Shown: one piece after another, positions 6,327 to 32,131 of the stretch
Position numbering within the stretch: position 1 is the first letter of the stretch
Layout: each line of letters opens with the position of its first letter
Assembly (NCBI GenBank): GCA_024280785.1
Contig: JAJRPK010000236.1
Coordinates: forward strand, 1 to 37,804
Direction: 5' to 3'
DNA from: Gammaproteobacteria bacterium
Lineage (GTDB): Bacteria > Pseudomonadota > Gammaproteobacteria > Pseudomonadales > UBA7434
Length of the DNA stretch: 37,804 nt
Made by a program: the position numbers and the translations under genes
Notes under the pieces: model-generated
Told to the model about the DNA's origin: nothing
The model's database searches: none
The model's input: the letters and a program-made list of their open reading frames with translations, nothing else

Positions 6327-6543
6327 CCGGCAAAATTATGCAAACACCTTTAGTCATCAATGATGAAAGAATGGTGAAAATGGACAATAAAAGGTCACCT
6401 CAGTAGCAATATCTCGCACATTGGCATCGATTCCTAATACTTTGGCACCAAATACCCAGCCGTCTCATCATGGGCAAATTACACTGTGCAGTCACTTTCT
6501 GTGATCCGTCTTGCGGCGGATAGATGCTGCCCGAGGAAAACTT

Positions 6544-7716: not shown

Positions 7717-7717
7717 C

Positions 7718-8377
7718 GTGAGCAAGATAAAACTCTGGCACTGTCACGACGCAAGGTCGTTGCGACCTCTCTGGGCATTGGAAGAAATGGGTGTTCCCTA
7801 CGAGGTGGAAGTGTTGCCATTTCCTCCCCGGATGTTTCAGCGAGAGTATTTAAGCGTCAATTCCCTGGGTACCGTTCCGTACTTCGTAGACGGTGAAACC
7901 CATATGACGGAGTCCAGTGCCATTTGCCACTACCTCGTAGAGAAATACCCACAGACAGTAGAAAAACACCCGCAGAGTGATTTAGGCCTATCGGTAGGTC
8001 ATCCAGAATACGGCGATTACTTGAATTGGTTATATCACAGTGATGCTACGCTAACGTTTCCACAAACTATCGTCATGCGCTATACCTTGTTAGAACCGCC
8101 AGAGCGCCAGCAACTGCAAGTGGTAGAGGATTACCGAAAATGGTTTATTGCCAGACTAAGGCGGCTGGATGCGCATATAGAGCATAGAGAGTTTCTTTGT
8201 GATGGGCGTTTTACCATAGCCGATATCGCTATCGGCTATGCACTGCATTTAGGTGACGTATTGGGGCTGTCTAGTGAATACAGTCCGCAAGTTCATAGTT
8301 ACTTGCATAGATTAAGAGACCGGCCGGCCTTTAAAAGGGCGCAACCTATCGGTGAGGACCAGAGTCCGTTTAAATAG
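7718..8377 (+). CDS. Glutathione S-transferase family protein
   Basis: N-terminal thioredoxin-like fold (KLWHCHDARSLRPLWALEEMGVPYEV, GTVPYFVDGETHMTESSAICHYL) plus a C-terminal alpha domain (FTIADIAIGYAL). GTG start sits one nt after the upstream stop. Confidence 0.8.
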   Translation: MSKIKLWHCHDARSLRPLWALEEMGVPYEVEVLPFPPRMFQREYLSVNSLGTVPYFVDGETHMTESSAICHYLVEKYPQTVEKHPQSDLGLSVGHPEYGDYLNWLYHSDATLTFPQTIVMRYTLLEPPERQQLQVVEDYRKWFIARLRRLDAHIEHREFLCDGRFTIADIAIGYALHLGDVLGLSSEYSPQVHSYLHRLRDRPAFKRAQPIGEDQSPFK

Positions 8378-8507
8378 CGGCTTTGGTTTGGTTGACAAGC
8401 AGCAGGCGAAAGATATTTTTCTATTTCGGTGGCAGCTAATTAGGATGCTGGACTACAAGAAACTTAAAAACACCACAATAACAACATGATAAACGTTAGG
8501 ATAAAAA

Positions 8508-9677: not shown

Positions 9678-9680
9678 GTT

Positions 9681-11306: not shown

Positions 11307-11355
11307 TCAATGTTAGCGGTGTAATAACGTTATTGGATAACTCTGGAAATTAATT

Positions 11356-12216
11356 ATGACATTAGCAGTATGCAAGGATATTGTATTAGATCTTAATAAT
11401 GGAGTGTTAAATATTCTTCTCAATCGACCACGCAAACGCAATGCGATGAGTCGAAATATGGTCGATGAAATCATGGCTGTATTTTCTTCTATTGCCGATG
11501 ATCGCAAGATTAGGGTCGTGGTGTTGAAGGGGGCAGAAGGTCACTTTTGCGCGGGTGGCGATATATCGAGTATGAATCGTGCTGCATCATCTACAGTATC
11601 ATCGACTAAGGAAACGGGGGATGATGTTGTAGATGAAGGTATTTCTGCACAAACGGTCGATCAAACTATTTGGGAATTCAATCGTATTTTTGGCCGAATG
11701 ATTAGTCAGGTGAATCGCGCACCCCAGCTTGTAGTGACTTTGTTAGAAGGGGCGGTGTTAGGCGGTGGTTTTGGTTTGGCCTGTGTTTCTGATATAGCGA
11801 TTAGTGATAAAGAGGCGCAGTTCGCGATGCCAGAAACGGGCTTAGGGGTTATTCCCGCGCAGATCGCACCGTTTGTCGTTGCTAGAATTGGAGTAACTCA
11901 AACTCGTCGCTTGGCTCTTTTAGGTGAGCGAATAGACGGTGAACAGGCTTGTCAAATCGGCGTAGCACACTATGTTACCGGTAGCCCGGAAGAGATGCAG
12001 GAAAAACTCGAGCAAGTTGTTAAAAAGGTAAAACGTTGCGCGCCAGAAGCAAATGCGGCGACCAAAAAACTCATTTTAGATGTTAGTGATTTAGTGACCG
12101 AAAAGTTGCTAGATCGAGCGGCTGATGAGTTTGTCGAAGCGATGGGCGGTAAAGAAGGTATTGAGGGGACAACAGCCTTTTTACAAAAGCGATTACCCTA
12201 TTGGGCGGAGCAGTAA
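11356..12216 (+). CDS. Enoyl-CoA hydratase/isomerase family (methylglutaconyl-/isohexenylglutaconyl-CoA hydratase-like)
   Basis: Crotonase motifs (FCAGGDI, GAVLGGGFGLA, MPETGLGVIP). It carries a Ser/Thr/Asp-rich insertion of about 25 aa after the first oxyanion-hole segment. Confidence 0.8.
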   Translation: MTLAVCKDIVLDLNNGVLNILLNRPRKRNAMSRNMVDEIMAVFSSIADDRKIRVVVLKGAEGHFCAGGDISSMNRAASSTVSSTKETGDDVVDEGISAQTVDQTIWEFNRIFGRMISQVNRAPQLVVTLLEGAVLGGGFGLACVSDIAISDKEAQFAMPETGLGVIPAQIAPFVVARIGVTQTRRLALLGERIDGEQACQIGVAHYVTGSPEEMQEKLEQVVKKVKRCAPEANAATKKLILDVSDLVTEKLLDRAADEFVEAMGGKEGIEGTTAFLQKRLPYWAEQ

Positions 12217-12221
12217 TTTCA

Positions 12222-14207
12222 ATGAATAAAATCTTAATTGCCAACCGAGGCGAGATTGCTGTTCGCGTGATTCGTACAGCTCGGGATTTAGGCTTTCGAA
12301 CGGTTGCCGTTTATAGCACTGCCGACGCGGATGCTATGCATGTTCACGAGGCCGATCAAGCTGTTTGTATCGGGTCCGAGCCGGCAAGTGAATCTTATCT
12401 GCGAGTGGATAAAATTCTCGCGGCTGCGGCACAAACAGGTGCCGATGCCATTCACCCGGGTTACGGCTTTCTTTCTGAAAATGGCCAATTTTCCAGTGCT
12501 TGTAGTGAGGCAGACATCATCTTTATTGGCCCGGATAGCGCGGCGATAGAGCTGATGGGTAGTAAACGCCTATCAAAAATTGCCATGATAGAAGCAGGTG
12601 TACCCTGTATTCCAGGGTATCAAGGAGAGGAGCAAGACGATGAGAAGTTGCTACTAAAGGCACAAGAAATCGGCTTTCCCATTATGGTGAAAGCCTCATT
12701 TGGTGGCGGCGGTCGCGGTATGCGTTTAGTACATCAGCCTGATGAATTGGCTGAACAAATGAAGATGGCGCGGTCAGAGGCACAAAATGCATTTGGCAGT
12801 GGTGAACTCATTCTTGAACGCGCGATAATTGAACCGAGGCATATTGAAATTCAAATCTTTGCCGATCGCCATGGCAATGTAGTTTATTTAGGTGAGCGAG
12901 ATTGCTCAATTCAGCGTCGTCACCAAAAGGTAGTGGAAGAAGCACCGTCTCCCTTTGTCGATGAGTTGCTGAGACAAAAGATGGGCGAAGCTGCTGTCAA
13001 TGCAGCAAAATCTTGTCAGTACGTTGGCGCCGGTACGATAGAGTTTTTGGTCGACAAGGATAAAAACTTTTATTTTTTAGAAATGAATACGCGCTTACAG
13101 GTAGAGCACCCGGTAACCGAGTTAATTACTGGCCTTGATCTAGTGGCTTGGCAGTTAATGGTTGCTGCCGGACAGCCGTTGCCATTGGTGCAAGATGATA
13201 TCCATTTGCGGGGGCACGCTGTGGAAGTGCGCCTTTATGCCGAAGACCCGCGCAATAATTTTATCCCACAAACGGGAACCGTATTGTGCTGGCGAACGTC
13301 TCATGCTGATGCGAGTTCCAATATACGCATCGATCACAGTGTTGCTGAAGGGCAAGTGGTCAGCACTCACTATGACCCTATGTTAGGAAAGGTTATTGCC
13401 TATGGAGACGATCGCCAAACCGCAGTGAGGCGCTTGGCCTCGGCGGTGCAAGATATTGTGTTGCTAGGTGTTAACACCAATAAACATTTTTTACACAAGG
13501 TTCTAAGACACCCCGTTTTTACTGCCGGTGAAGCAACTACAGCTTTTATCGAACAACAATTTTCTACCGACTCAAGCGTTAAAAACTCGACACCCGAATT
13601 GGCAACAGTGGCCAAAGCGGCCTTGCTGTTTTATCTACAGGGAGCTAAGTCCGCCGGCATGTCTCACGGTAACCCTTGGCAAACGGCGGTTGCAACAAGT
13701 TACTCTTTTAAGCTTGAACATGCGGGGGAGGTAATGGGTGTTCAATTGAGTTGTGAAGCAAATTGTTTTCAGATATCACTCGGCGATTATCGAGAGGATG
13801 CCGCGCAATCATTAACGCTAGAGTGGGTTTCTTGTAAAGATAATCGCTGTGTCGTGGTGGAATCGGGTGTGCGGCAAGCGTTTGACTACGTGTTTGATAG
13901 CTCATGTTTGTTTTTAGACGATGGCAGCGGCCACTATATTTTTGACAACATAACGCATCAACCGGCGAGTGCTGGTGGCGGTGTAGGCAATGGTGAAGTT
14001 GTCGCGTCGATGGACGGCTCAATTGTTGAAGTGTTAGTTAAGACTGGCGATGTGGTTGAACAAGGGCAAACGATTTTAGTTATTGAAGCGATGAAAATGG
14101 AGCATCCTTTGAAATCGGATATTTCTGGTATCGTCAAATCGCTAACAGCTAGTGTCGGTCAGCAAGTCAAATCGAAACAGTTGTTGGCAACGGTTATAGA
14201 CCAGTAA
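12222..14207 (+). CDS. Acyl-CoA carboxylase alpha subunit (biotin carboxylase + biotin carboxyl carrier domain)
   Basis: MNKILIANRGEIAVR start, ATP-grasp loop GGGGRGMR, FLEMNTRLQVEHPVTE, and the C-terminal biotinylation motif EAMKMEH. I prefer the ATG at 12222 to the TTG at 12201. Confidence 0.92.
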   Translation: MNKILIANRGEIAVRVIRTARDLGFRTVAVYSTADADAMHVHEADQAVCIGSEPASESYLRVDKILAAAAQTGADAIHPGYGFLSENGQFSSACSEADIIFIGPDSAAIELMGSKRLSKIAMIEAGVPCIPGYQGEEQDDEKLLLKAQEIGFPIMVKASFGGGGRGMRLVHQPDELAEQMKMARSEAQNAFGSGELILERAIIEPRHIEIQIFADRHGNVVYLGERDCSIQRRHQKVVEEAPSPFVDELLRQKMGEAAVNAAKSCQYVGAGTIEFLVDKDKNFYFLEMNTRLQVEHPVTELITGLDLVAWQLMVAAGQPLPLVQDDIHLRGHAVEVRLYAEDPRNNFIPQTGTVLCWRTSHADASSNIRIDHSVAEGQVVSTHYDPMLGKVIAYGDDRQTAVRRLASAVQDIVLLGVNTNKHFLHKVLRHPVFTAGEATTAFIEQQFSTDSSVKNSTPELATVAKAALLFYLQGAKSAGMSHGNPWQTAVATSYSFKLEHAGEVMGVQLSCEANCFQISLGDYREDAAQSLTLEWVSCKDNRCVVVESGVRQAFDYVFDSSCLFLDDGSGHYIFDNITHQPASAGGGVGNGEVVASMDGSIVEVLVKTGDVVEQGQTILVIEAMKMEHPLKSDISGIVKSLTASVGQQVKSKQLLATVIDQ

Positions 14208-18958: not shown

Positions 18959-19084
18959 GTAAAACAGCGATGGTAACAAAATATGCCGTCAACCGCTGAA
19001 TTCTGTTTTGTCAGACGTGGTAAACTCGCTTCCGTTTTATTCGTTCGTCCATCTATTTATTCATTGCTACCGTTAAATTGACTC

Positions 19085-20710
19085 ATGCTTAGACTTACCA
19101 ACATACAATTACCGCTGGACCATGGCGACGAAGACCTTCTTGAGTCGATTGTCGAGCGGCTCGGTATAGAGCAGGGCGATGTGGTCAAGATTAGCTTATT
19201 TAAACGCAGCCACGATGCGCGCAAAAAAGGCCGTATCAAATTAATTTATAGTTTAGATGTTGAGCTCTTTGAAGCTAAAGAAACGGCCGTTTTAAAACGT
19301 TTGGGTGGGAGTGACGCTGTCCGTATAAGTCCTAACACCCAATATCAGTTTGTCGCGAATGCCGCAGAGACTTTTCCTCAAGCTGAGCAGGATCGGCCGG
19401 TGGTGGTTGGTTTTGGCCCTTGTGGTATTTTGGCAGCGCTACTGCTGGCGCAAATGGGCTTAAAGCCCATTGTGCTTGAACGTGGTCAGGATGTCAGGCA
19501 GCGAACCAAAGATACTTGGGACTTTTGGCGTAACCGGGAGTTAAACCCGGCTTCTAATGTGCAATATGGCGAAGGAGGGGCGGGAACCTTTTCTGATGGC
19601 AAGCTCTATAGTCAGATTAAGGACCCCCATCATTATGGCCGCAAGGTGTTGCAAGAGTTTGTTAAAGCGGGTGCTCCCGAAGAAATATTGTACGTCAGCA
19701 AACCTCACATTGGCACGTTTAAGCTGGTTAAAATGGTCGAGGCTATGCGGGCTGATATTGTGGCGCTGGGTGGAGAAATTCGCTTCGGTCAACAGATGGA
19801 GAGCTTGCTGCTTGACCAGCAACAGGTTCGAGGTGTCCGCTTGTGTTCTGGCGAAGAGATCGCGACTCGCCATGTGATTATGGCTGTGGGACACAGCGCG
19901 CGTGACACCTTTGATTCCTTGTTAGATTCGGGCGTTTATATCGAGCCTAAACCGTTTTCAATTGGCTTTCGTATCGAACACCCGCAATCGCTTATCGACA
20001 AAGCGCGATTTGGCGGGCAAGCGGGCCATCCCCTTTTGGGCGCGGCGGATTATAAATTGGTTCACCATTGTGAAAATGGGCGCAGTGTTTACAGCTTTTG
20101 CATGTGCCCCGGTGGCACGGTCGTTGCCGCTGCTTCAGAACCCGGACGTTTGGTAACTAATGGTATGAGTCAATATTCGCGCAACGAGCACAACGCCAAT
20201 TCGGCGATTGTTGTGGGCATTGATCCTGAGCGGGATTACCCAGAGCATGTATTTGCGGGAATTGACTTACAGCGCCGGCTTGAAGAGCGTGCCTTTGTGT
20301 TGGGTGGAGAAAATTACAATGCACCGGCGCAGTTAGTGGGCGACTTTCTGGCGAGCAAGGCTTCGACAACAGCGGGAAGTGTTGAACCTTCATATCAACC
20401 GGGTGTCACTTGGGGTGATGTGAGTCAACTGCTACCCGCGTTTGCGGTTACTGCGATTCGCGAAGCGATTCCTGCTTTTAATAAAAAAATAAAAGGCTTT
20501 GCGATGAGTGACGCCGTACTCACGGCCATAGAAACCCGCACCTCCTCACCCATTTGTATTAAGCGTGATAAAGCGAGCTTGGCCAGTGTGAATACGGTGG
20601 GCTTGTACCCAGCGGGCGAAGGGGCCGGTTATGCGGGGGGTATTCTATCGGCCGGTGTGGACGGCATTAAAGTGGCCGAAGCTGTGGCTAAAGATTTGCT
20701 TGGCATTTAA
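19085..20710 (+). CDS. FAD-dependent protein of the COG2509 type (uncharacterised FAD-dependent dehydrogenase)
   Basis: 541 aa. The N-terminal MLRLTNIQLPLDH...EDLLESIVERLGI is the typical small N-domain, followed by the dinucleotide-binding motif VVVGFGPCGILAAL and C-terminal GLYPAGEGAGYAGGI. Confidence 0.8.
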   Translation: MLRLTNIQLPLDHGDEDLLESIVERLGIEQGDVVKISLFKRSHDARKKGRIKLIYSLDVELFEAKETAVLKRLGGSDAVRISPNTQYQFVANAAETFPQAEQDRPVVVGFGPCGILAALLLAQMGLKPIVLERGQDVRQRTKDTWDFWRNRELNPASNVQYGEGGAGTFSDGKLYSQIKDPHHYGRKVLQEFVKAGAPEEILYVSKPHIGTFKLVKMVEAMRADIVALGGEIRFGQQMESLLLDQQQVRGVRLCSGEEIATRHVIMAVGHSARDTFDSLLDSGVYIEPKPFSIGFRIEHPQSLIDKARFGGQAGHPLLGAADYKLVHHCENGRSVYSFCMCPGGTVVAAASEPGRLVTNGMSQYSRNEHNANSAIVVGIDPERDYPEHVFAGIDLQRRLEERAFVLGGENYNAPAQLVGDFLASKASTTAGSVEPSYQPGVTWGDVSQLLPAFAVTAIREAIPAFNKKIKGFAMSDAVLTAIETRTSSPICIKRDKASLASVNTVGLYPAGEGAGYAGGILSAGVDGIKVAEAVAKDLLGI

Positions 20711-20757
20711 CCCTTAAGATATGTTGGGACATCTGGGGAGCGTCCATTATGTCCCGT

Positions 20758-20946
20758 TCAATTTTGCTTCTCTTCATCGACAGCTCTAAACAGAAGAGGG
20801 GTTTCACTCAAAACAGCGAAGTGGTCGAGGAGGGCATCATAGTATTTGTCGGCTTGGGCCTCACCCCATTGGGTGTAGCCGTCTTCATAAAGACTATCGA
20901 GGTCTTGATCTGCTTCGGTGGATATAACCAGTCGAAATTTAGGCAT
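20758..20946 (-). pseudogene. parE: ParE-family toxin remnant (only about the N-terminal two thirds remains)
   Basis: MPKFRLVISTEADQDLDSLYEDGYTQWGEAQADKYYDALLDHFAVLSETPLLFRAV matches the ParE N-terminal helical hairpin, but the ORF stops at 62 aa and no frame continues the beta-sheet core. The start overlaps the parD stop by 8 nt. Confidence 0.65.
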
Positions 20947-21184
20947 TGCCGCCCAATCGCTTTTTGGTATCCTGACGGATTTTCTCAGGACTGCGGCCAC
21001 TAAATCCACTTTGTTCGGCGCGAATGAGCTTTGCTCGGAGTAGATCCAGTTCTCCTTGTTCTTTTCTGGCCTTGCGAATTAAGTCATTCACCACATCGCT
21101 TTTGGTGCTGTATTCCTGACTATCGACTTGGGCTTTCAGCCAGTCGTCATTCGGTGGGGTGAAAGTGACACTTTGGCGTGACAT
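20939..21184 (-). CDS. parD: ParD-type (ribbon-helix-helix, COG3609) antitoxin
   Basis: 81 aa. The N-terminal RHH segment SVTFTPPNDDWLKAQVDSQEYSTKSDVVNDLIRKA is followed by a helical tail. AAGGAG lies 9 nt upstream of the ATG. Confidence 0.8.
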   Translation of the reverse strand: MSRQSVTFTPPNDDWLKAQVDSQEYSTKSDVVNDLIRKARKEQGELDLLRAKLIRAEQSGFSGRSPEKIRQDTKKRLGGNA

Positions 21185-21207
21185 GAAGGGAGTCTCCTTG
21201 GGTAATT

Positions 21208-21237
21208 AACCTATGCACCATATTTGCACCTTGTCAA
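21208..21237 (-). promoter_or_regulatory. Putative parD promoter with direct-repeat operator
   Basis: On the minus strand: TTGACA (21237-21232), an 18-nt spacer, then TAGGTT (21213-21208). The spacer holds two GGTGCA direct repeats 11 bp apart (plus-strand TGCACC at 21214-21219 and 21225-21230). Confidence 0.4.
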
Positions 21238-21372
21238 TAAATAAACAATATGCTACATGAAATTTAGACCACACCCTACATTTCATACTTTCAACAGTAT
21301 TATTAGCGCGTGAAATGTAGGCCGGAGAACACCATTTTTTCGGGAGACCCTATTTTTCCTACTTAGATGGTA

Positions 21373-21414
21373 TTGACGTATCCATATATATCCATTAATC
21401 TAGATATATGGATA
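21373..21414 (+). promoter_or_regulatory. Putative arsR promoter plus palindromic ArsR operator overlapping the start codon
   Basis: TTGACG (21373-21378), 17-nt spacer, TAATCT (21396-21401). An 11-bp inverted repeat TATCCATATAT (21379-21389) / ATATATGGATA (21404-21414) brackets the -10 and includes the arsR ATG (21408). Confidence 0.5.
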
Positions 21415-21788
21415 TAAAAGAAGCTATTCCGCTATTTGACGCCTTGTCTCAAGAAACCAGACTAAGGGCTTTTCGGCTATTGGTGCAGGCTGGTCAGCAG
21501 GGATTGCCTGCCGGAGAGCTGAGCGAAAAGCTCGGAACACCGCAAAACACACTGTCGTTCCACCTCAGCCATCTTTCAAATGCGGGAATTATTCGTTCCC
21601 GCCGTGAAGGGAGATCAATCATTTACTCAGCGAACTACGATGTGATGCACGGGTTAATCAGCTTTATGGTGAAAGATTGTTGCAGTGAAGATTTAGCCAG
21701 TATCCATGAAGACAAGAGCAACGGCTGCTCAATCATCGAGCTAGCCGATTGCTGTGATTTGATAGATAAACGAGAGGAAAAAAGATGA
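21408..21788 (+). CDS. arsR: ArsR/SmtB-family metalloregulator
   Basis: The wHTH core LFDALSQETRLRAFRLL...LSEKLGTPQNTLSFHLSHLSNAGII is present, with a Cys-rich C-terminus (DCCSED, NGC, DCCD). Its stop overlaps the arsI start (ATGA). Confidence 0.88.
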   Translation: MDIKEAIPLFDALSQETRLRAFRLLVQAGQQGLPAGELSEKLGTPQNTLSFHLSHLSNAGIIRSRREGRSIIYSANYDVMHGLISFMVKDCCSEDLASIHEDKSNGCSIIELADCCDLIDKREEKR

Positions 21789-22177
21789 AACGTTTGCATA
21801 TCCATGTTGGTGTTGATCGCCTCGATCAATCCATAGCATTTTACAGCGCTTTATTTGGCGCGCAGCCTTCCAAGACGAAAGAAGATTACGCAAAGTGGTT
21901 GCTGGACGATCCGAGTATCAATTTTGCGATTTCGACTAGGGGCGGTAAAACGGGTATTGACCACCTAGGAATTCAAGTCGACGAAGGCCACGAATTAGCT
22001 GATCTTCGAGAGCGATTGAAAGATGCCGATTTATCCCTATTTGATGAAGGTCAAGCCGTGTGTTGTTACGCGCGATCAGACAAGTCTTGGGTCGAAGACC
22101 CCACAGGTCTTGCATGGGAAGCTTACAAGACAATGGAAGATGCCCAATTTTTTAGCGGTGATGCAGACAACAAATAA
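21785..22177 (+). CDS. arsI: ArsI/CadI-family VOC (glyoxalase-fold) metalloenzyme, probable organoarsenical C-As lyase
   Basis: MKRLHIHVGV...SIAFYSALFGAQP, IDHLGIQV, and the vicinal cysteine pair in AVCCYARSDKSWVEDP that characterises ArsI. It sits inside an ars operon. Confidence 0.8.
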   Translation: MKRLHIHVGVDRLDQSIAFYSALFGAQPSKTKEDYAKWLLDDPSINFAISTRGGKTGIDHLGIQVDEGHELADLRERLKDADLSLFDEGQAVCCYARSDKSWVEDPTGLAWEAYKTMEDAQFFSGDADNK

Positions 22178-22254
22178 GGGGCTTGCTGTGTGCCAGAAAG
22201 TAGCGCTGTAAAATCAGGTAGCCTAGCCGAAAAATCGAGCGGGTGCTGTGGGTG

Positions 22255-22665
22255 ATGAAATCAATCCTTATATTGTGTACGGGAAACTCTTGCCGCTCTG
22301 TCATGGCAGAAGCGCTCGTTAATTATCTAGGCTCTGGGGAATACAAGGCTGTGAGCGCAGGAAGCAATCCAGCAGGGTACGTACATCCAAAGTCACTAGA
22401 AACATTGCAAAAGCACGGTATAGCAATGAGCAATCCACGCAGTAAATCGTGGGATGAGTTTGCCGACCGGCACTTTGATACGGTGATTACCGTCTGTGAT
22501 CAGGCTGCAAGTGAGAGCTGTCCACTTTTCCTAGGGGATTACGAAAAGCTGCATTGGAGTACTCCTGACCCAGCTAAAGTTGAAGGCAGCGAAGAAGACA
22601 TAGACACCGCGTTTGAAGAGGCTTTTCAAATACTCAAGAAACGCATAGAGAAAGAACTGTTATGA
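22255..22665 (+). CDS. arsC: Arsenate reductase, LMW-PTPase type
   Basis: P-loop CTGNSCRS in [17 protein letters not shown] and a downstream Cys pair in [12 protein letters not shown] prefer the ATG at 22255 (MKSIL...) to the GTG at 22243. Its stop overlaps the acr3 start (ATGA). Confidence 0.88.
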
Positions 22666-23705
22666 CCGCTGAAAATACATCGCCTATGGGATTATTTGAG
22701 CGCTACTTATCGCTATGGGTGGCATTGTGTATTGCTGCGGGTGTAGGGCTGGGCATTATGGTGCCTGACCTATTCAATATGATTGCTGGCATCGAGTACG
22801 CTAGCGTTAATCTTGTCGTTGCTGTTTTTATTTGGGTGATGATTTACCCAATGATGGTGAATGTTGATTTTGCCTCTTTGAAAGATGTTGGGAAAAAACC
22901 CAAGGGACTATGCATCACTCTAGTGGTTAACTGGCTGATTAAGCCCTTTACCATGGCCGCGCTCGGCATACTCTTTTTTGAGCATGTTTTTGCAGGGTTT
23001 GTAGAGCCTGAGACTGCAAAAGAATACATCGCCGGAATGATCTTACTCGGCGTAGCTCCCTGTACAGCGATGGTCTTTGTTTGGAGCCAGCTAGTGCGTG
23101 GGGATGCGAATTACACACTGGTCCAGGTTTCCATCAATGACATTATTATGGTGTTTGCTTTTGCCCCTATTACCGCGTTCCTACTAGGGGTCACAAATAT
23201 TATTGTCCCGTGGGAAACGCTGTTACTTTCTGTCGTTCTCTACGTGGTTGTTCCGCTTGCGGCTGGGTATATAACCCGCAGAGTACTGGATGATTCAGGC
23301 GATCATGAACGCATAGCTAACTTCACCGGAAAAATAAAACCAATTTCTGTAATGGGACTTTTGGCAACCGTGATTTTACTGTTCGGATTTCAGGCGCAAA
23401 CCATTATTGATAAACCCGTGGTGATAGCGTTGATCGCTATTCCGCTTCTTATCCAAAGCTACGGCATTTTCGTCATTGCCTACGGTTGGGCGTATTTATG
23501 GCGGGTGCCGTTCAGCATAGCGGCTCCTGCTGCGCTGATAGGGACTTCCAATTTCTTTGAATTGGCCGTTGCCGTAGCTATTAGTCTGTTTGGTTTAAAT
23601 TCTGGCGCGGCTCTTGCCACGGTTGTTGGTGTGCTCGTTGAAGTCCCGGTTATGCTGGCTATGGTAGCTATTGCCAATAGGACACGGTATCGTTTTATAG
23701 AGTGA
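22662..23705 (+). CDS. acr3: ACR3-family arsenite efflux transporter
   Basis: 347 aa with about 10 TM segments, the conserved [11 protein letters not shown] motif, and an N-terminal FERYLSLWV typical of ACR3. Confidence 0.9.
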
Positions 23706-23719
23706 TAATTGTTAGTATG

Positions 23720-23748
23720 AAAAACCCGCCGTAAAAAGCGGGTTTTTG
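23720..23748 (+). terminator. Rho-independent terminator after acr3 (potentially bidirectional)
   Basis: AAAAACCCGC-cgtaaaaa-GCGGGTTTTT: a GC stem at 23725-23729 / 23738-23742 with a flanking A-run and T-run, 15 nt after the stop codon. Confidence 0.8.
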
Positions 23749-23825
23749 CTATATATAGCTGATGACTAACGAATATGATAATGTTATTGCAAGTTAGAGA
23801 TGTCCTGCCTTAAAAAAGTTAGACG

Positions 23826-23887
23826 AATACGCTGGGAATACGCTGGGAGAATACGCTGGGACACTCATAATACGCTGGGACACTCAT
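23826..23887. repeat. Direct-repeat array, core AATACGCTGGG x4 (the last two copies extend to a 19-bp unit AATACGCTGGGACACTCAT)
   Basis: Core copies at 23826-23836, 23837-23847, 23850-23860 and 23869-23879. A hairpin follows: CTCATCG (23883-23889) / CGATGAG (23903-23909). Confidence 0.9.
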
Positions 23888-24069
23888 CGCATTAATCAGA
23901 GCCGATGAGAGTAGAAAGCTCAGGTATGAAATGGCTCGCTTAAGGTGATTCTACAAGAAAATAATAAAAAGTATGACGAATGGAAGGAATTGTTTAATTT
24001 CGGCTTATTCCAAGATAGCAGAAATCTCCAAAGCTATTCTCTGGATTTGTAAATAATGTATTGTATGAA

Positions 24070-25038
24070 TTAGGCCGCTAAGAGTGTTGTCTTATCAGCG
24101 ACAAAGCGTTGTCTGCGCACGCTCTCAAAGTCCGTTGCGCCAGATAACCATTTTTTCTTATTAATATTTAGCCGTTTTAAAATGGGTGGGAGTTGTGAAC
24201 CAATGGCTCCCCGTTTATCGGCCCGTATGACTCGCCCTGTCCAATCCACCAATTCGAGATAGTCGACCAAAGTAAACGGAATACCGGATTGATCTTGGTT
24301 TGTTGTGGCCTCATTAAACGACAATAAGGGTTTTAACTCGGTATTAAACGACTGGAAAAACCCTTGCCCCGTTAAGTTTTCAATGGCTTTAGCCAAATCA
24401 AACTGAGGTTTGATTCGCTCCTGAATACTGGTGTAGTCAGATGATTCGGGGGTTTCTGCCATCTTGGCTCTGATAGGGTTTAAATCAACATAAGCCATAC
24501 AAGAGAGTAAAGCCTCTTCGGTGAGTAAGGGGTCAGAGGTATAGCGTTGTTCAAAGAAACGGCCTTTGCAGCGATCCTCTTTGTTAGCCCGCCGAGAAAT
24601 AGGTTGGTTGAGGTATTTCATAAAGCAACTGATATCGGCGAGACTTTTTCTAAAGTGGTTCACTTGTTGAGAAACGAACTCACGCTGAAGCGGGGATAAC
24701 GGAGAACCGCTAGCATAATCTCGCACGAGTGGGTGACCCTTGAACACCGTCAACCACCGCTGTATCACCTCGTGGTTACCCAACGCCTCAATCTGTTCAG
24801 GCGATATTTTCACCACCAGATGGTAGTGATTAGACATCACCGCGTAAGCACAGATATCGATAGCAAAGACACTTGCTAATAGCCTTATTCGTTCAACGAT
24901 CCACTGCCGTCGATGTTCGTAATCGGTATGGGTTTCGTGATCATAGCCGCAGAGAAAAGAGCGTCTAACGCAGCGAGTTGTGATGTGGTAATAGGGTGTA
25001 TCTGAAAGAGAAATGAGATCCTTTCTAGCTTTTGTCAT
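24070..25038 (-). CDS. HUH/Y1 transposase-like protein (IS200/IS605 TnpA / REP-associated RAYT-like, long 322-aa form)
   Basis: YHITTRCVRRSFL, the HUH motif in MSNHYHLVV, and a Tyr motif in AYVDLNPIRAKM. No TnpB/accessory ORF is adjacent. Confidence 0.75.
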   Translation of the reverse strand: MTKARKDLISLSDTPYYHITTRCVRRSFLCGYDHETHTDYEHRRQWIVERIRLLASVFAIDICAYAVMSNHYHLVVKISPEQIEALGNHEVIQRWLTVFKGHPLVRDYASGSPLSPLQREFVSQQVNHFRKSLADISCFMKYLNQPISRRANKEDRCKGRFFEQRYTSDPLLTEEALLSCMAYVDLNPIRAKMAETPESSDYTSIQERIKPQFDLAKAIENLTGQGFFQSFNTELKPLLSFNEATTNQDQSGIPFTLVDYLELVDWTGRVIRADKRGAIGSQLPPILKRLNINKKKWLSGATDFESVRRQRFVADKTTLLAA

Positions 25039-25207
25039 GATGAAATCCTTTCATCGCTGGAGATAAGTGATTGAAATCTTAGTGCTGCCGGTGGATGATG
25101 TCAATCTAAAAGCGAGTGTTCCGTTCAATTTGTTTGTTTATTGCTAAGCTCACATTAGGCGGTCAAATGTCAAACGATGAATGTTTGAATGATATGAGGT
25201 GTCAACA

Positions 25208-25969
25208 ATGGATTATCTAAGTATTGAAGAAGGTCGCAAAGCCGATGGGCTTAGGTTGGTTTTAGTTGCTGGAACTCCAGGTGCATGGGGTGAATGTATT
25301 AAGGCCGTGTATAAGGTAAAAGGCATCAGCTACAAGGCTGTAGCGCAGCTTATGGAAAAAACAGTTGACGATTTGTGGCAGTGGACGGGCCAGACTAGTG
25401 CTCCCGTAGCGGCATACAATGATGAGCGCATTCGTGTGACTTGGGAAAATATGCTTTGGCAAGCCGAACAACTTGAACCTGAGCCCAAACTAATCCCTGC
25501 TAATGTTCATGATCGCGTTTTGATGTTTGGTATGTTACGTGAGCTGGCAGGAGAGTGTGGTTTTGCCTGGGATAGACGCTTACATTCGATTGCTATGTCA
25601 GGTGGTCCTGAAGCAAATCCTGTTCTTTCTTATTTAGCAGAAAAATACGGTTATAGTGAAAGCGAAGTTGAGGCTTCTTACTTGCGCACAGCTGACTTGT
25701 TAGCGCTTTTTTCTGAGCGACTGGAACAGCAACATAAGGCAGGTTCCCGTTATTATATCGGTGATTCACTGACCGCTTTAGATTTGTATGCTACTGTTTT
25801 GTTCGCGATTATGATTAAGCCGTTGCCGCATGAAGATATACCTATGCCAGAAGGTATGCGTTGGGGGTTTTCACAATCGCACCCATGCCTTGAAACGGCG
25901 AGCCCTGTTTTATTTGAACATCGCGATTATATTTTCGACAAGTATTTAACCTTACCGTTAGATTTTTAG
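25208..25969 (+). CDS. GST-like fold protein of unknown function
   Basis: The N-terminus is thioredoxin-like (LVLVAGTPGAWGECIKAVYKVKGISYKAV, APVAAYNDERIRVTWENMLWQAEQL) and the C-terminal domain is helical (YIGDSLTALDLYATVLF). The ATG at 25208 is preceded by TGAGGTG. Confidence 0.5.
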   Translation: MDYLSIEEGRKADGLRLVLVAGTPGAWGECIKAVYKVKGISYKAVAQLMEKTVDDLWQWTGQTSAPVAAYNDERIRVTWENMLWQAEQLEPEPKLIPANVHDRVLMFGMLRELAGECGFAWDRRLHSIAMSGGPEANPVLSYLAEKYGYSESEVEASYLRTADLLALFSERLEQQHKAGSRYYIGDSLTALDLYATVLFAIMIKPLPHEDIPMPEGMRWGFSQSHPCLETASPVLFEHRDYIFDKYLTLPLDF

Positions 25970-25972
25970 TCG

Positions 25973-26356
25973 ATGAAAGATTGCAACCAATGCGGAAAAT
26001 GTTGTGTTAATTACAGTGACGGTGGCCTACACGCTACAGCGAGTGAAATAGAATATTGGGAGATTTTTAGGCCCGCCATATATAAGTATGTTAGTGAAGG
26101 AAAAATTTGGATAAACCCGAACACGGGCAAACAAATGAAGCGGTGCCCGTGGTTGCGGCAATTGCCAAATCAAGATAAGTATACCTGTGATATATATTAT
26201 GACCGTCCTGATGACTGCAAACAGTACCCCATTGATATCAGTCAAATGGTAAAAGATGGGTGCGAAATGCTAGAAGTTCAAGATTTGGCAAAACCAAAAC
26301 AAGCCCAGAAATCTTTAGACAAACTCATGCTCGATAGTAGGCCGTCGCTGCCTTAA
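25973..26356 (+). CDS. YkgJ-family cysteine-cluster protein (UPF0153)
   Basis: CNQCGKCC at the N-terminus, with further Cys in RCPWL, YTCDIY and DDCKQYP. Starts 3 nt after the preceding stop. Confidence 0.7.
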   Translation: MKDCNQCGKCCVNYSDGGLHATASEIEYWEIFRPAIYKYVSEGKIWINPNTGKQMKRCPWLRQLPNQDKYTCDIYYDRPDDCKQYPIDISQMVKDGCEMLEVQDLAKPKQAQKSLDKLMLDSRPSLP

Positions 26357-26501
26357 GGAAATAAATGCGGGGCTGGCCAATGTATAAAAGGCGCGGAGTT
26401 AAACACACTAGCTAAGAACATAATCGAAAGACGATGCAATGGAGCTCCGGCGCCGATGTGTCTCTACCAGCTTGCAAAAGGCTAAACCAAGGGCCAAGAG
26501 G

Positions 26502-27149
26502 CTATAACCCTAGCTCCGAGCGCAAAATTTTCAATCTCAGTTTTTGTTCCGTTTTATCTAACGGTTCGGCTTTATGCTGTTCAATGGCTTTGGCGATAGG
26601 GACTTCTAGAATCTCACCTTTTCTAACGCGCTCTGCTAATAACTGAAAATTACGCTCAAATACGGGGAAAGTTCTTGCCTCCGACTCGCTGCGCAAAAAT
26701 CCCCAGCCTGTAGCTTTACCCGCGTAGTAAATAATCGGGTGGGACCAGCTGACCGCCTGTTTAGTACCGGTTGCATTGCAAGCTTGTAAGTACGCGGCTT
26801 TAATATCGGGGATGCCATCCATTGCCGCCGCGTCGGCCAATTGTCGAATGGAATTAAGCGAGGGTAAAAAATCAGAGTTGCAAAGGGCTTTTCTGCCACC
26901 TGCGATAATATGTTCGGGTTGTAAATCGACTAGCATGCGTAGCCATAACTGCTTGGCCATCGACAGCGAGCGATGGTCGGGAAAAGCCTTGTGAAATTGA
27001 TTGTGATACGCCATTTCGAGCTCGGTAAACAGTTGGCTTACCGCGTCAATATGGGCTTCAGTAGGTTTGATATTACTTGGTGCAGCGCTACTTTCACTTG
27101 CTGCACTAACGATTTGTTCCGGGGTATAGTTAGAGATTTGTTTTTTCAT
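26502..27149 (-). CDS. Lambda replication protein P-family protein (putative replicative helicase loader)
   Basis: 215 aa, colinear by eye with lambda P as I remember it: FLPSLNSI vs FLPSPGQF, GIPDIKAAYLQAC vs GLPNVSELVDMVYEYC, RVRKGEILEVPI vs RINRGEAIPEPV, plus a basic C-terminal tail. Confidence 0.6.
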   Translation of the reverse strand: MKKQISNYTPEQIVSAASESSAAPSNIKPTEAHIDAVSQLFTELEMAYHNQFHKAFPDHRSLSMAKQLWLRMLVDLQPEHIIAGGRKALCNSDFLPSLNSIRQLADAAAMDGIPDIKAAYLQACNATGTKQAVSWSHPIIYYAGKATGWGFLRSESEARTFPVFERNFQLLAERVRKGEILEVPIAKAIEQHKAEPLDKTEQKLRLKILRSELGL

Positions 27150-27196
27150 TGTGTTGTCTCTACGCTATGTATGGTTTAGATGGCGGTTTAAGCTGA

Positions 27197-28315
27197 TCAT
27201 ACTAGATCTGCCGCCCAGCTGCGATCGGTCAAGCGTTCAAAGGCATCGCCTCGCGACTGGCTATCGTTGGTATTACGTCGTGCCCATCGGTATTTGACGT
27301 GCTGTAAAAATTTGGTGTTCCAAGAGTGGTGTAGCTGATTGTTGTCGCGCCAATAAAGTACAAATTCGCCGATTAAATCGCGGGCAAACTGAGCGTCGAT
27401 ATTGGCAATCGTTAGAACGTCAAATACTTCGTGGTCTGGAATCCAATTGTCGCTAATGGCGACGGGCTCAGTGTCGTGCTTTAAGGTATGAGTGAACCGT
27501 GCCCACTGCCGTTTTACATGGTTAACAAATTTTGAGTTCCATGTTGTTTGTGCTTCTTTTCGCTCTTGCCAATACAAAATGAATTCGGCTACGGCATCAT
27601 CAATAAAGTTTTTATTGATCCCCATGCGAACCAGGATTTCAATTGCGTCGAGGCTAGGTTGCCACTGTTTTTCAATCTCTGTGCTAGCTTGGCTAATAGT
27701 ATTTTGTCGCGCCGCCTGTTCGGAACGGTAATTTTGTTCGGTTTGCCATCGGCGTGAGACATGTTGGATAAACTTGCTCGACCATGCGTGTGAAGCTTCA
27801 TCGCGCTCGCGCCAATAAAGAACAAATTCAGCGGCAGAGGCTTCAATGAAAACGAGGTCCACACCCTGCTGTGATAGCTGTGAGATAACAGAATGATCGG
27901 GCTGCCAGTTTGGCGGGATTCGTGTCGCACCTAATCCGCTGGCAGGCAGCGGTGATTGGCGGCCTTGTGGGTTATTTTGCAAGGGTGTTTGAAGCGGAGG
28001 CAGGGGTGTCTGCTGATTAATCGCCAGTTCAATAGTTTGAGTTTCTGCATTGGGGAAGCTATCGATCAGTATCATGCCTAGATCTATCAGTTTGTGCAAA
28101 ATACGTCGGAGGGCGGGAGGGCTCCAGAACGGGAGCTGTGATGACAACGTCGCTAAATTAGTGCGAGTCCACTGATAACCTTTCTTATGTTCAGTTTGCG
28201 CTAATGCCTGCAATGTCTCAATGTGCTGCAATAGAATCGCTTCTTCTAGCCCGATGGTTGCCGCCAATGAAGGCGAGACGACAATGGGGCGTTCAGGGAT
28301 AAGGGATTCATTCAT
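27197..28315 (-). CDS. DnaT-like ssDNA-binding domain protein (N-terminal wHTH-like region + three tandem DnaT-type domains)
   Basis: Three repeats of about 57 aa share W-x-P...EF(V/I)LYW(R/Q)...(S/T)W(S/N)(S/T)KF...HV...W (aa 133-191, 217-272, 290-346). They follow a Pro/Gln-rich linker. The gene sits 47 nt upstream of the P-like gene on the same strand. Confidence 0.6.
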   Translation of the reverse strand: MNESLIPERPIVVSPSLAATIGLEEAILLQHIETLQALAQTEHKKGYQWTRTNLATLSSQLPFWSPPALRRILHKLIDLGMILIDSFPNAETQTIELAINQQTPLPPLQTPLQNNPQGRQSPLPASGLGATRIPPNWQPDHSVISQLSQQGVDLVFIEASAAEFVLYWRERDEASHAWSSKFIQHVSRRWQTEQNYRSEQAARQNTISQASTEIEKQWQPSLDAIEILVRMGINKNFIDDAVAEFILYWQERKEAQTTWNSKFVNHVKRQWARFTHTLKHDTEPVAISDNWIPDHEVFDVLTIANIDAQFARDLIGEFVLYWRDNNQLHHSWNTKFLQHVKYRWARRNTNDSQSRGDAFERLTDRSWAADLV

Positions 28316-28556
28316 AATCTTGGTGATATCGTCCAGTGCACAATACTTTTGTTTGGCGGCTTATTGTAAATCTTTGCTTGATCAATCTCTAGTTCTGCCT
28401 GCAAAATCTATCTATGCCGGTGGATATTAAGTGCGGATAGCTACTGCAGAAGATAGATCTGGTCATTCGTACAGATTTTGCTTATTTGAAAAATTCTGCT
28501 CTGCTATTTGCCGATAGCGCTGATAAACTACCAGCTCGTTAACAGGATACGATTTT

Positions 28557-29915
28557 ATGGCTAAAGCTAAATCCGCTTATGTATGCTCTGATTGTGGTTC
28601 AGATTACACCAAGTGGCAGGGGCAGTGCACCGATTGCAAAGCGTGGAATACGCTGTCGGAGATTCGCCTTAGTAGCGCCACCGACCGCGGGGCCCGCTTG
28701 GTGGGTTTTGCCGGCGCCGATAGTCAGGTACAAACGCTGGGCTCTATTGATTTAACGCGTATACCCAGACAAACGACCGGTATGGCTGAATTTGATCGTG
28801 TATTGGGCGGAGGCTTGGTAGCGGGCTCCGCTATTTTGATTGGCGGTAGTCCTGGCGCGGGCAAGAGCACGTTGTTATTACAGGTGATGTGTGGTTTGGC
28901 CGCCAAGCTGTCTGCTCTGTATGTAACAGGTGAGGAGTCGCTACAGCAGGTAGCCTTGAGAGCTGAGCGTTTGGGGCTGCCCACCGATAAGCTGCAGTTG
29001 GCTACTGAAACTAATATAGAAGCTATTATTGCCATCGCACAAAAACTCAAACCGAAAGTGATGGTGGTCGATTCCATTCAGGTGGTACATACCAGCGATC
29101 TACAATCCGCCCCCGGTGGAGTGTCTCAAGTGCGGGAATGTGCCGCCTATTTAACCCGTTTCGCCAAGCAGAGTAATACGGTTGTATTTTTAGTGGGCCA
29201 TGTAACAAAAGACGGAAGCTTAGCCGGCCCGAAAGTGCTAGAGCATATGATTGATTGTTCCATTCTGTTAGAGGGGTCTTCTGACAGCCGTTACCGAACG
29301 TTGCGGGGGCAAAAAAATCGCTTTGGTGCGGTTAATGAATTGGGCGTATTTGCGATGACGGAGCAGGGTTTAAAAGAAGTTAAAAACCCCTCGGCGATAT
29401 TTTTGAGTCGCGCCGATGAGGATGCGCCTGGCAGTGTAGTGGTAGTTTTATGGGAGGGAACGCGATCACTGTTGGTGGAGATTCAAGCTCTAGTTGACGA
29501 CACTCAGTTGAATAATCCTCGTCGCGTTGCCGTTGGCTTAGAGCAGAATAGATTGGCAATGTTACTAGCAGTATTACATCGTCACGGTGGCTTGGCAGTT
29601 GGAAATTCAGACGTATTTGTCAATGCCGTAGGTGGCGTAAAGGTGTTAGAGACCGGGGTGGATTTGGCCGTGTTGCTAGCGATTGTTTCCAGTTTTCGAG
29701 ATCGCTGCTTGCCGCGCGATTTGGTGGTATTTGGTGAGGTGGGATTGTCCGGTGAAATAAGGCCTGTAACCAGCGGGCAAGAGCGTATTTTAGAAGCGGC
29801 AAAGCACGGATTTAAACGTGCGATTGTGCCTAAGGCAAACATGCCGAAACAAGCTATTCCGGGAATGGAAGTGGTGGGAGTTAGTAAGTTAAGTGAGGCG
29901 TTAGAGCTGGCTTAG
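28557..29915 (+). CDS. radA: DNA repair protein RadA/Sms
   Basis: Zinc finger CSDCGSDYTKWQGQCTDCKAWNT, Walker A GGSPGAGKST, the RadA motif KNRFG, and a Lon-protease-like C-terminal domain. Confidence 0.95.
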   Translation: MAKAKSAYVCSDCGSDYTKWQGQCTDCKAWNTLSEIRLSSATDRGARLVGFAGADSQVQTLGSIDLTRIPRQTTGMAEFDRVLGGGLVAGSAILIGGSPGAGKSTLLLQVMCGLAAKLSALYVTGEESLQQVALRAERLGLPTDKLQLATETNIEAIIAIAQKLKPKVMVVDSIQVVHTSDLQSAPGGVSQVRECAAYLTRFAKQSNTVVFLVGHVTKDGSLAGPKVLEHMIDCSILLEGSSDSRYRTLRGQKNRFGAVNELGVFAMTEQGLKEVKNPSAIFLSRADEDAPGSVVVVLWEGTRSLLVEIQALVDDTQLNNPRRVAVGLEQNRLAMLLAVLHRHGGLAVGNSDVFVNAVGGVKVLETGVDLAVLLAIVSSFRDRCLPRDLVVFGEVGLSGEIRPVTSGQERILEAAKHGFKRAIVPKANMPKQAIPGMEVVGVSKLSEALELA

Positions 29916-29948: not shown

Positions 29949-31609
29949 TCACTTTAGCTTCTTATATCTCATTCGCTTGGGTTGCGCATCTCGACCTTTG
30001 CGCTTAATAAATTCTTCGTGGTACTCGGTGTAGTTGCCGGCAAAAAATACCGCCTCTGAATCGCCTTCGTAGGCCAAAATATGTGTGGCAACGCGGTCTA
30101 AAAACCAACGATCATGTGAGATAACCATCGCGCAGCCGGGAAAGGTTAGCAGTGCTTCTTCTAATGCTCGCAGTGTTTCTATATCTAAATCGTTAGATGG
30201 CTCATCGAGCAGTAGCACGTTGGCTCCTTGTTTTAATGTAACTGCGAGTTGTAGTCTTCCTCGTTCGCCGCCAGATAATTCGCCAACTTTTTTCTGTTGG
30301 TCGGAGCCTTTAAAGTTAAATCGTCCCACATAGGCGCGAGAAGATACTTCGTAACCGCCGATTTGAATTAGTTCATGACCGCCGCAAACGGCTTCCCACA
30401 CCGACATATCATCTTGCAGTTCGTCGCGCATTTGTTCGACATGAGCGATTTGAACGCTGTCACCGATAACGATTTCTCCACTGTCAGCTTGCTCTTGTCC
30501 GGTAATCATTCTAAACAGCGTGGACTTTCCTGCGCCGTTGCCACCGATAATTCCGACGATCGCTCCTTTAGGTACGATAAAACTCAAATCGTTAATGAGT
30601 GTGCGGTCATCATAGGATTTGTTGACATGTTTGAATTCGATAACCGAGTCACCCAGCCTGGGCCCGGGTGGGATGTAAATTTCGTTGGTTTCACTGCGTT
30701 GTTGAAAATCTTGTGAGCTGAGTTCGTCAAAGCGTTGTAGTCGTGCTTTACTTTTGGCGTGACGCCCTTTGGTTCCGGACCGGACCCATTCCAGCTCTGA
30801 TTTTATCGATTTTTGCCGCGAGACCTCTTGTTTTTCTTCCATGGCCAAACGCTGCTCTTTTTGTTCTAGCCACTTTGAGTAATTACCTTCATAGGGCATG
30901 CCGCGACCGCGATCGAGTTCTAATATCAGTTTGCTGCGTTGTCGAGAAAGTAACGGTCGTGGGTGATCGCTACTACGGTGCCGGGGTAGTCTTCTAAAAA
31001 CTGCTCCAGCCAATGGACGCTTTCGGCGTCCAGATGGTTGGTCGGCTCGTCGAGTAGCAACATGTCAGGGTTGGAAATAAGTAGGCGGCACAGCGCTACC
31101 CTGCGTCGTTCACCGCCCGATAGTTTGCTGACATCGGCATCCCATGGTGGAAGCCGCAAAGCATCGGCCGCAATTTCCAGTTTGTGATCGAGGTTGTGCG
31201 CGTCAGCAGCTTGCAACAAATTTTCCAGTTTAGCCTGCTCTTTGGCCAGCGCGTCAAAATCGGCATCGGGTTCAGCGTAGGCGGCATAGATTTCGTCGAG
31301 TTTTTTCTGTGCATCGCCAACGTCGCCCAAACCATCTTCGACGTTTCCGCGCACATCTTTGGACTCGTCTAGTTGAGGTTCCTGTGGCAAGTAGCCAACT
31401 TTTAAGTCTGCTTGCGGGCGTGCTTCGCCGAGATAATCATTATCGATACCGGCCATAATTTTTAGCAAGGTGGATTTGCCCGAGCCGTTGAGACCGAGTA
31501 CTCCGATTTTGGCGCCGGGAAAAAACGACAGAGAAATATCTTTTAAAATTTCACGCTTGGGTGGCACAATTTTGCCGACGCGATTCATGGTGTAAACGTA
31601 TTGGGCCAT
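29949..31609 (-). pseudogene. ettA: Energy-dependent translational throttle EttA (ABC-F ATPase), reading frame broken by a 1-nt deletion
   Basis: The N-terminal ORF (MAQYVYTMNRVGKIVPPK...ITHDRYFLDNAAN*) and the C-terminal ORF (...ILELDRGRGMPYEGNYSKWLEQK...) together span a full EttA. The frames join at 30926-30930, where AAC TGA TAT TA would read AAC TGG ATA TTA (N-W-I-L) if one G were restored. Confidence 0.85.
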
Positions 31610-32131
31610 CAGTTGGTTCCACGGTCTATTTGGCTTCACCGTCTATCCAGTAAAGTAGCGGTGGCTGTTTTAACGTATCTATCAATTACCCGCAACGCAA
31701 TAACTAGCAACGCGCAAGCGGGTTGGATTATACGGGAGATTACGCCAACAAACGTGCTCTGATTATTCATTGGTGCAGGATTAATAAATTCACAGTTAAA
31801 GCAATGCCGTACAAGTGCTGGCAAAGTGAGTGTTCCTTAGAGAGCAGTTCTTAGGGGGCAGGCTATTGTTTGTCAGTTGCCGCCAGGGCCAGCGGTCATT
31901 GACAAATCGGGTAGGAAGCATTGAAAAACATGGGGCTAAAAGCGGCCGTGACTGCTAAAAAAGCTGATTTTGACCAGATTAATGAGGCCTGATATCAGTG
32001 CATATCGGCACTGAGTTCTGTAGAATATGCGCTCTTCTTGGTAGCTGTTTTTATCCTCAAATGATCCATCGATGTTCGCTGAATGGGCAGGTGTCGCTGG
32101 CAGTAATCTTTATTCAATTTGGAGTGTGTGA

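Follow-up and report, generated by a model that had tools for sequence, protein, structure and literature searches.

The pair DopC-DopE (‘domesticated P element’ and its companion) was described in marine gammaproteobacteria by Brezellec et al. 2017 (Genome Biol Evol 9:1561; PMC5509034). It has been put forward as a third kind of loader for the bacterial replicative helicase, next to DciA and DnaC/DnaI, and illustrates how phage genes can take over an essential function of the cell. Looking for a gene whose presence goes along with the disappearance of dciA and dnaC/I from Cellvibrionales and some of the Oceanospirillales, these authors obtained a single candidate, the lambda-P-like dopE, which is always preceded by dopC, whose product combines a lambda-O-like N-terminus with a C-terminus carrying the DnaT C-terminal motif (PMC5509034). 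Neither gene belongs to a prophage; both have a phylogeny congruent with that of their hosts, lack iterons and DnaA boxes and are located away from the GC-skew minimum, and the pair replaces DciA in a clade that lost dciA (PMC5509034). Here, we analyzed a contig of 37.8 kb from an uncultured gammaproteobacterial lineage (JAJRPK010000236.1; the whole stretch of DNA is hereafter called the window), in which an earlier reading of the sequence (hereafter, the original prediction) had singled out two minus-strand genes 47 nucleotides apart, encoding proteins of 372 and 215 amino acids. Their coordinates and lengths were exactly confirmed, and we are almost certain that they are the orthologues of dopC and dopE. 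The best overall explanation, which we hold with high confidence, is a resident two-gene operon derived from a phage initiator and loader, that is, a DnaB-loading DopCE; taken separately, the loading of DnaB by this particular pair is probable by analogy. The pair is thus already known, and its finding here is a rediscovery in a typical member of the described clade and not a new kind of system, so that its presentation as a new candidate has to be withdrawn, the module having been described in 2017 and cited since.

The resemblance of the 215-residue protein to lambda P, which had been noticed by eye, was upheld by Pfam, PHROG, full-length profile alignment and Foldseek. Indeed, DopE passes the Pfam cutoff for Phage_lambda_P (PF06992; 31.2 bits versus 26), with residues 36–182 placed on profile positions 2–160 of 162, and matches PHROG 109 ‘P-like helicase loader’ (E = 1.3e-19). 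The DopE family profile aligned with lambda P (8v9t_V) over its full length and colinearly (E = 7e-4), and hhalign against the P protein of Pseudomonas phage PAJU2 gave a probability of 99.5%, again colinear, through the C-terminal helix. The AlphaFold2 model of DopE (predicted local distance difference test, pLDDT, 82.5; predicted template modelling score, pTM, 0.61) begins with ~30 disordered residues, continues with a helical core and then an extended segment, and ends in a C-terminal helix, and the top five Foldseek matches of this model in the PDB are lambda P chains in cryo-electron microscopy (cryo-EM) complexes of E. coli DnaB and lambda P (E = 1e-4, probability 1.00). The C-terminal helix aligns with residues 208–226 of lambda P and with the C-terminus of PAJU2 P, and L209 and L213 of DopE are invariant or nearly so. 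In lambda P, the corresponding lasso helix binds the DH-LH elements of DnaB, which, according to a cryo-EM paper published in 2025 in Nucleic Acids Research (PMC12661323), no RecA-family protein other than DnaB possesses. Note that DopE is 35–63% identical to chromosomal homologues, with which it has the invariant motifs HNQFHKA and AKQLWL in common, and only 22–29% identical to phage P proteins; judged by sequence relatedness, it is a member of a resident clade and not a phage P-like protein.

The architecture that had been proposed for the 372-residue protein, with a winged-helix-like N-terminal region, a Pro/Gln-rich linker and three tandem DnaT domains, was likewise recovered by Pfam, PHROG and the AlphaFold2 model, and the profile searches that had been suggested for the DnaT DNA-binding domain and for Phage_lambda_P both gave scores over the Pfam cutoffs. 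Pfam DnaT (PF17948) matches DopC in three stretches (E = 3.3e-71, 235 bits), corresponding to three domains that were delimited with a repeat hidden Markov model (HMM) built from the window, while its residues 1–116 match PHROG 6493, 11233 and 428 (phage replication initiator or DnaD-like; E = 7e-9 to 2e-5). In the model (mean pLDDT 85.7), residues 15–100 form a winged helix predicted with confidence (pLDDT above 90 in the N-domain); the linker after it is of low confidence, and is followed by three units of three helices each and by a tail that is disordered (pLDDT below 50). Foldseek searches with the N-domain returned winged-helix proteins, including the RepA_N-type initiators 4pql, 4pt7 and 5kbj (probability 0.90–0.99, with weak E-values). 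Pfam gave no match at E < 1 for residues 1–127, including to Phage_rep_O (PF04492), for which the O protein of PAJU2 scores 69 bits; thus, DopC is O-like in role and fold and not a PF04492 member by the Pfam test. The three-fold repeat is universal, since exactly three DnaT domains were counted in 72 of the 73 DopC proteins adjacent to dopE, the remaining one being cut by a contig end. DopC has 2080 homologues, full-length among the 120 listed, and every homologue inspected ends in a D-x-[S/D]-W tip, in which the residues D364, S366 and W367 are invariant (alignments A2 and A4), whereas the rest of the tail is variable and disordered. This motif reads LTDRSWA in the window copy and L[KN]DT[SD]W in Oceanospirillales-type DopC, where it forms the very last residues, and by its sequence the tip resembles a candidate docking peptide.

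The conservation of the pair was examined by using an alignment of DopE to search a single genome for each species and by keeping as loci the best 80 of the at least 590 matching genomes. At least 590 species-representative genomes encode a relative of DopE, and a screen of 2.9 million viral contigs gave no protein of the DopE type. The best 80 genomes all carry names of Cellvibrionales-, Oceanospirillales- or Pseudomonadales-type taxa (Spongiibacteraceae, Halieaceae, Cellvibrio, Litorivivens, Zhongshania, Marinimicrobium, Thalassolituus, Oleispira, Bacterioplanes, Oceanobacter, Pseudohongiella, and Cellvibrionales or Pseudomonadales metagenome-assembled genomes, MAGs), and these are the clades of the 2017 DopCE paper. 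Of the 77 loci that were informative, i.e., with an upstream open reading frame (ORF), 73 have dopC as the gene immediately preceding dopE. The synteny of the housekeeping genes radA, ettA and glyA is common to the window and its relatives, and RadA, EttA and GlyA of the window are 84–92% identical to those of MAGs labelled Cellvibrionales or Pseudomonadales bacterium, which places the host in Cellvibrionales or in the dopE-type Oceanospirillales. The lineage had been expected to use DciA, which does not hold, as this clade lost dciA (PMC5509034). The identity of the window copy to any other sequence found is at most 63% for DopE and 69–71% for DopC. In addition, many short (195–201 residues) Lys/Asn/Ile-rich homologues of DopE, ~35% identical to the window protein, were found in marine metagenomes, and their sequences suggest that an abundant marine lineage of low-GC Gammaproteobacteria has fixed DopE as well. 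As for a possible donor, no viral contig qualified as the source of a DopE-type gene.

The two genes and the features within them are listed in Table 1. The candidate sigma-70-like promoter upstream of dopC is the sole promoter-like site within 26350–28600, and its -10 hexamer, together with a neighbouring GCAAAG block, is kept in the radA-dopC spacer of 8–9 relatives. A terminator was searched for in the gap between dopC and dopE and none was found; co-transcription of both genes is therefore likely. On the radA side of the same spacer (~28505–28520), a separate block, CAGTTTATCAGCAC, is kept in 8 close relatives and is distinct from the promoter-like block of dopC; it may be a regulatory or 5′-untranslated-region element of radA.

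Table 1. Positions in the window of dopC, dopE, their parts and the divergent gene radA
Feature	Coordinates	Strand	Remarks
dopC	27197..28315	-	N-domain winged helix (phage-initiator type), Pro/Gln-rich linker, three repeats of the DnaT C-terminal domain, conserved C-terminal tip
DopC N-terminal winged-helix domain, residues 1–100	28016..28315	-	PHROG, AlphaFold2 model, Foldseek
DopC Pro/Gln-rich flexible linker, residues 101–131	27923..28015	-	pLDDT 53–76; poorly conserved in alignment A4
DopC DnaT-type repeat 1, residues 132–200	27716..27922	-	Pfam DnaT, repeat HMM, three-helix unit in model
DopC DnaT-type repeat 2, residues 213–275	27491..27679	-	Pfam DnaT, repeat HMM, model
DopC DnaT-type repeat 3, residues 286–355	27251..27460	-	Pfam DnaT, repeat HMM, model
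DopC C-terminal tip LTDRSWA, residues 362–368	27212..27232	-	In disordered tail; candidate docking peptide
dopE	26502..27149	-	Lambda-P-family helicase loader by sequence, resident cellular clade
DopE helical globular core, residues 31–176	26622..27059	-	AlphaFold2 pLDDT ~90 or higher; counterpart of lambda P domains II–III (scheme of PMC12661323)
DopE C-terminal helix, residues 199–212	26514..26555	-	Model; counterpart of lambda P C-terminal lasso helix
Sigma-70-like promoter candidate for dopC-dopE	28363..28391	-	TAGAGA-17-TACAAT
radA	28557..29915	+	TIGR00416, 675 bits; conserved beside dopC in a large subclade, in divergent orientation; functional link to the pair not supported

A domesticated, phage-derived helicase-loading module of the lambda O/P type, as the original prediction had supposed, is also the published interpretation of dopCE (PMC5509034), and all the tests that we ran agree with it. 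We propose that the chromosomal operon descended from a phage initiator-plus-loader pair, and that several copies of DopE would bind the DnaB hexamer via their helical core and open the ring, by analogy with lambda P. DopC would then serve as the adaptor delivering the DopE-DnaB complex to single-stranded DNA (ssDNA), which could be the DnaA-opened oriC, abandoned forks, or both. Its three linked DnaT-type three-helix domains may wrap ssDNA, like the separate DnaT C-terminal domains (CTDs) in the E. coli preprimosome filament, and the presence of three such domains in one chain fits a ready-made short filament. The recruitment of DopE-DnaB would involve the winged-helix N-domain of DopC and/or its D-x-S-W tip, much as lambda O recruits P-DnaB, and the pair would in this manner take the place of DciA (PMC5509034). 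A more specific version, which we advance tentatively and consider rather doubtful as a whole, is that of a ‘pre-assembled DnaT filament’, in which the fused CTDs would wrap ssDNA without PriA/PriB, the tip would dock DopE-DnaB, the pair would serve both oriC and a PriA-independent restart, and the portable unit of repeats and tip would also be used by Mu-like phages for helicase recruitment to transposition forks.

It should be noticed that several observations weigh against this interpretation. The Pfam score of DopE is only modestly over the threshold, and the global TM-scores between DopE and lambda P range from 0.34 to 0.44, a value of 0.6 being reached at the domain level only. With its low pTM of 0.39, the DopC model gives no prediction of how the three repeats are placed relative to one another, and the expression ‘lambda O-derived’ is, by the sequence of the N-domain and its missing Phage_rep_O match, looser than its name implies. 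In addition, dopE occurs without dopC within the 6-kb flanks in four genomes (L029, L031, L070 and L073), where glutathione S-transferase, cytochrome P450 or GGDEF genes stand upstream instead and dopE is followed by ettA/glyA; these four cases qualify the statement that dopC is always adjacent (PMC5509034), and since they carry dopE without adjacent dopC, DopC may not be strictly required in cis, or may have been relocated or lost in these genomes. No dciA, dnaC or dnaI gene was found in the 37.8-kb window, which, as a single contig, carries little weight for a genome-wide absence. Finally, later papers cite DopE as a ‘suggested’ loader, and no experiments on DopE or DopC were found in the searchable literature.

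Among the other explanations, the one that survives best restricts the module to replication restart, so that DopC-DopE would reload DnaB at abandoned forks as an analogue of DnaT-DnaC, while another factor, or DnaA alone, would provide loading at oriC. The restart preprimosome indeed contains DnaT domains, which receive the ssDNA of the lagging strand, the order of a DnaT-like gene followed by a loader gene mirrors dnaT-dnaC, and the option was raised for DopC by the authors of the 2017 study (PMC5509034). However, dopE is the sole gene that tracks the loss of both dciA and dnaC across the clade (PMC5509034), which argues for a primary loader, and lambda P itself acts at an origin; we thus consider restriction to restart improbable, the two roles being moreover compatible. 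Still less credible, in our opinion, is an anti-phage function, speculated on in the same paper (PMC5509034), in which the resident P-like protein would grip DnaB so that P-like or DnaC-like loaders of incoming phages could not hijack it. In the competition with DnaC for DnaB, lambda P is known to win, but neither protein matches the PADLOC defence models, and a single-copy core pair found in a housekeeping context in at least 590 species differs from patchy defence islands; such protection would at best be a side benefit of the loader role.

The original prediction also considered a link with the branch-migration helicase RadA, and the divergent neighbour was indeed identified as radA. As for the suggested conservation of the pair beside this gene, it stands for 37 of the 80 loci, in which divergent radA lies directly upstream (the nearest relatives of the window, Spongiibacteraceae, Halieaceae, Zhongshania and Litorivivens), and fails for the remaining intact loci, at least 31 in number, which show other contexts: 8 have dopE followed by ettA and glyA without radA upstream, and 23 (Oceanospirillales-type, Cellvibrio, Marinimicrobium) have still other neighbours. 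An adjacency seen in 37 of 80 loci therefore indicates subclade synteny rather than a functional link, that is, a position near ettA/glyA inherited in one part of the family and not a constant of the system. In the corresponding explanation, the P-like protein would load or regulate RadA instead of DnaB in recombination, and the adjacency in 37 loci and the conserved intergenic region that the two transcription units have in common speak for it. Nevertheless, we give it hardly any credence: intact dopCE is found without adjacent radA in at least 31 loci, including those of Oceanospirillales-type genomes, Cellvibrio, Marinimicrobium and Pseudohongiella-type genomes, the DH-LH elements, to which the lasso helix of lambda P attaches, are reported for no member of the RecA family but DnaB (PMC12661323), and radA occurs in all bacteria, whereas dopCE is confined to its clade. 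Support for RadA as a client was not found.

Lastly, a prophage, satellite or plasmid-like element could have decayed and left its replication core behind, as a neutral remnant or as a still selfish unit. This reading, which the original prediction had offered as an alternative for a satellite or plasmid-like element, draws on the phage ancestry of the domains and on the Y1-transposase-like ORF and non-conserved ars block just downstream. It is effectively refuted, as both genes are intact, keep invariant motifs and occupy a syntenic housekeeping context in hundreds of species, iterons, DnaA boxes and phage genes are all missing from the locus or window, the family is missing from viral contigs, and the variable block lies outside the pair.

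Coming back to DopCE as a resident operon, its genomic surroundings can be summarized as follows. The absence of phage genes nearby, initially claimed for 10 kb, extends to the whole window, which contains no integrase, phage repressor, structural or lysis gene, but has to be corrected for a 322-residue ORF with a Y1/IS200-like transposase domain (24070–25038, a weak match), located 1.5 kb downstream of dopE. This ORF belongs to a block (19000–26600, downstream of dopE) that also comprises arsR-arsI-arsC-acr3 (21408–23705), a 256-residue ORF without family match and a CxxCxxCC protein; none of the 80 related loci has such a block beside dopE, so that it represents an accessory, variable stretch next to the conserved pair. 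No DnaA box with at most one mismatch was found in 26502–28556, and the sole direct repeats at the locus (spacing 219 and 243 nucleotides) are not iterons but belong to the coding sequence of the repeated DnaT domains; an origin inside dopC was accordingly discarded, the repeats being the DNA image of protein repeats and DnaA boxes lacking. Neither tRNA genes nor matches to structured RNAs of Rfam were found in the window. Its remainder is metabolic and housekeeping in nature, with an acyl-CoA catabolic cluster, the ars operon, ettA, glyA, nrdR and ribD-E-BA-H. Note that the ettA-type ABC-F gene (29949–31639, minus strand) is broken into two ORFs by a frameshift at ~30926–30932, with residues 1–226 and 229–553 of the intact orthologue from locus L002 in different frames (91% and 84% identity), so that it is either a pseudogene or the product of an assembly error. 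The cluster at 6511–14207 is of an ordinary leucine/isovalerate catabolic type, with two acyl-CoA dehydrogenases, a carboxyltransferase, an enoyl-CoA hydratase and a biotin carboxylase, and an AraC-family regulator upstream.

The comparison with phage initiators places the architecture of DopC in a wider frame. The ‘DnaD-like primosome initiator’ (PHROG 1408 type) of Stenotrophomonas phage vB_SmaS_QH16 is colinear with residues 2–202 of DopC (E = 3e-18) and has the same N-terminal motif (SLIPE-P...PSLA..GL.EA..LQ), a linker and one genuine DnaT domain (Pfam, 50.7 bits), in contrast to three in DopC; moreover, it lacks the D-x-S-W tip and is followed by RusA, without an adjacent P-like loader. 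Since the QH16 initiator already joins this kind of N-domain to a DnaT domain, the architecture is present in phages, and the sequences indicate that it need not stem from a domain replacement after domestication. Phage PAJU2, for its part, has a classic O and P pair without DnaT domain, and neither of the two phages qualifies as one with a DopC-like initiator beside a P-like loader. The scan of viral contigs with DopC returned only a 166-residue protein of a Mu-like phage (IMGVR_UViG_2199352012_000202; L083, 4010–4510), which consists of two DnaT domains (Pfam, 128 bits) and ends in LSDRSWA, a DopC-like tip; its neighbours are GemA, Mor, DUF3164 and a MuB-like AAA protein, and no P-like gene stands beside it. 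Mu replication uses the host PriA/DnaT restart pathway.

Compared with lambda, DopE is a homologue of P (PDB 8v9t, 9oa1 and 9oa2) by Pfam, profile and predicted fold, with the same four-part layout, and its gene likewise lies downstream of an initiator-type gene; in contrast, it is a cellular, resident protein, just 16–17% identical to lambda P in structural alignments, whose family-specific invariant motifs HNQFHKA and AKQLWL were not found in viral contigs, and DopC lacks the C-terminal domain and the internal origin of lambda O. With E. coli DnaT-DnaC, the pair has in common the order of a DnaT-domain protein followed by a loader, as well as the DnaT C-terminal ssDNA-binding fold, a domain that works in E. 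coli as a multi-copy filament. However, DopC is not an orthologue of DnaT (22.6 bits with NCBIfam PRK02854, for a cutoff of 201, the CTD region alone aligning): it is devoid of the DnaT N-domain and bears three fused CTDs instead of one per chain, and the AAA+ (IstB-like) ATPase domain of DnaC/DnaI is found in neither DopC nor DopE. A related theme is offered by VdhL1/VdhL2 of Vibrionaceae (PMC11087808), where DciA, the ancestral loader, was replaced by a virus-derived, non-homologous loader with an O-like companion; VdhL1/VdhL2 and DciA belong to other protein families and other clades than DopCE.

Altogether, a reader provided with the sequence alone can recover the DopCE module, and the residual interest lies in the function of DopE and DopC itself and in details of DopC (number of repeats, tip and phage precedent). 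The universal three DnaT repeats, the C-terminal tip, the radA/ettA/glyA context of one subclade and the dopE-only genomes are absent from the 2017 text, which mentions only ‘a domain’. For the rest, the window copy comes from an uncultured lineage and differs in nothing essential from the described DopC-DopE (PMC5509034), with the same gene order, a PF06992 dopE downstream, an initiator-like N-terminus and DnaT motif in DopC, a non-prophage context and the same taxa.

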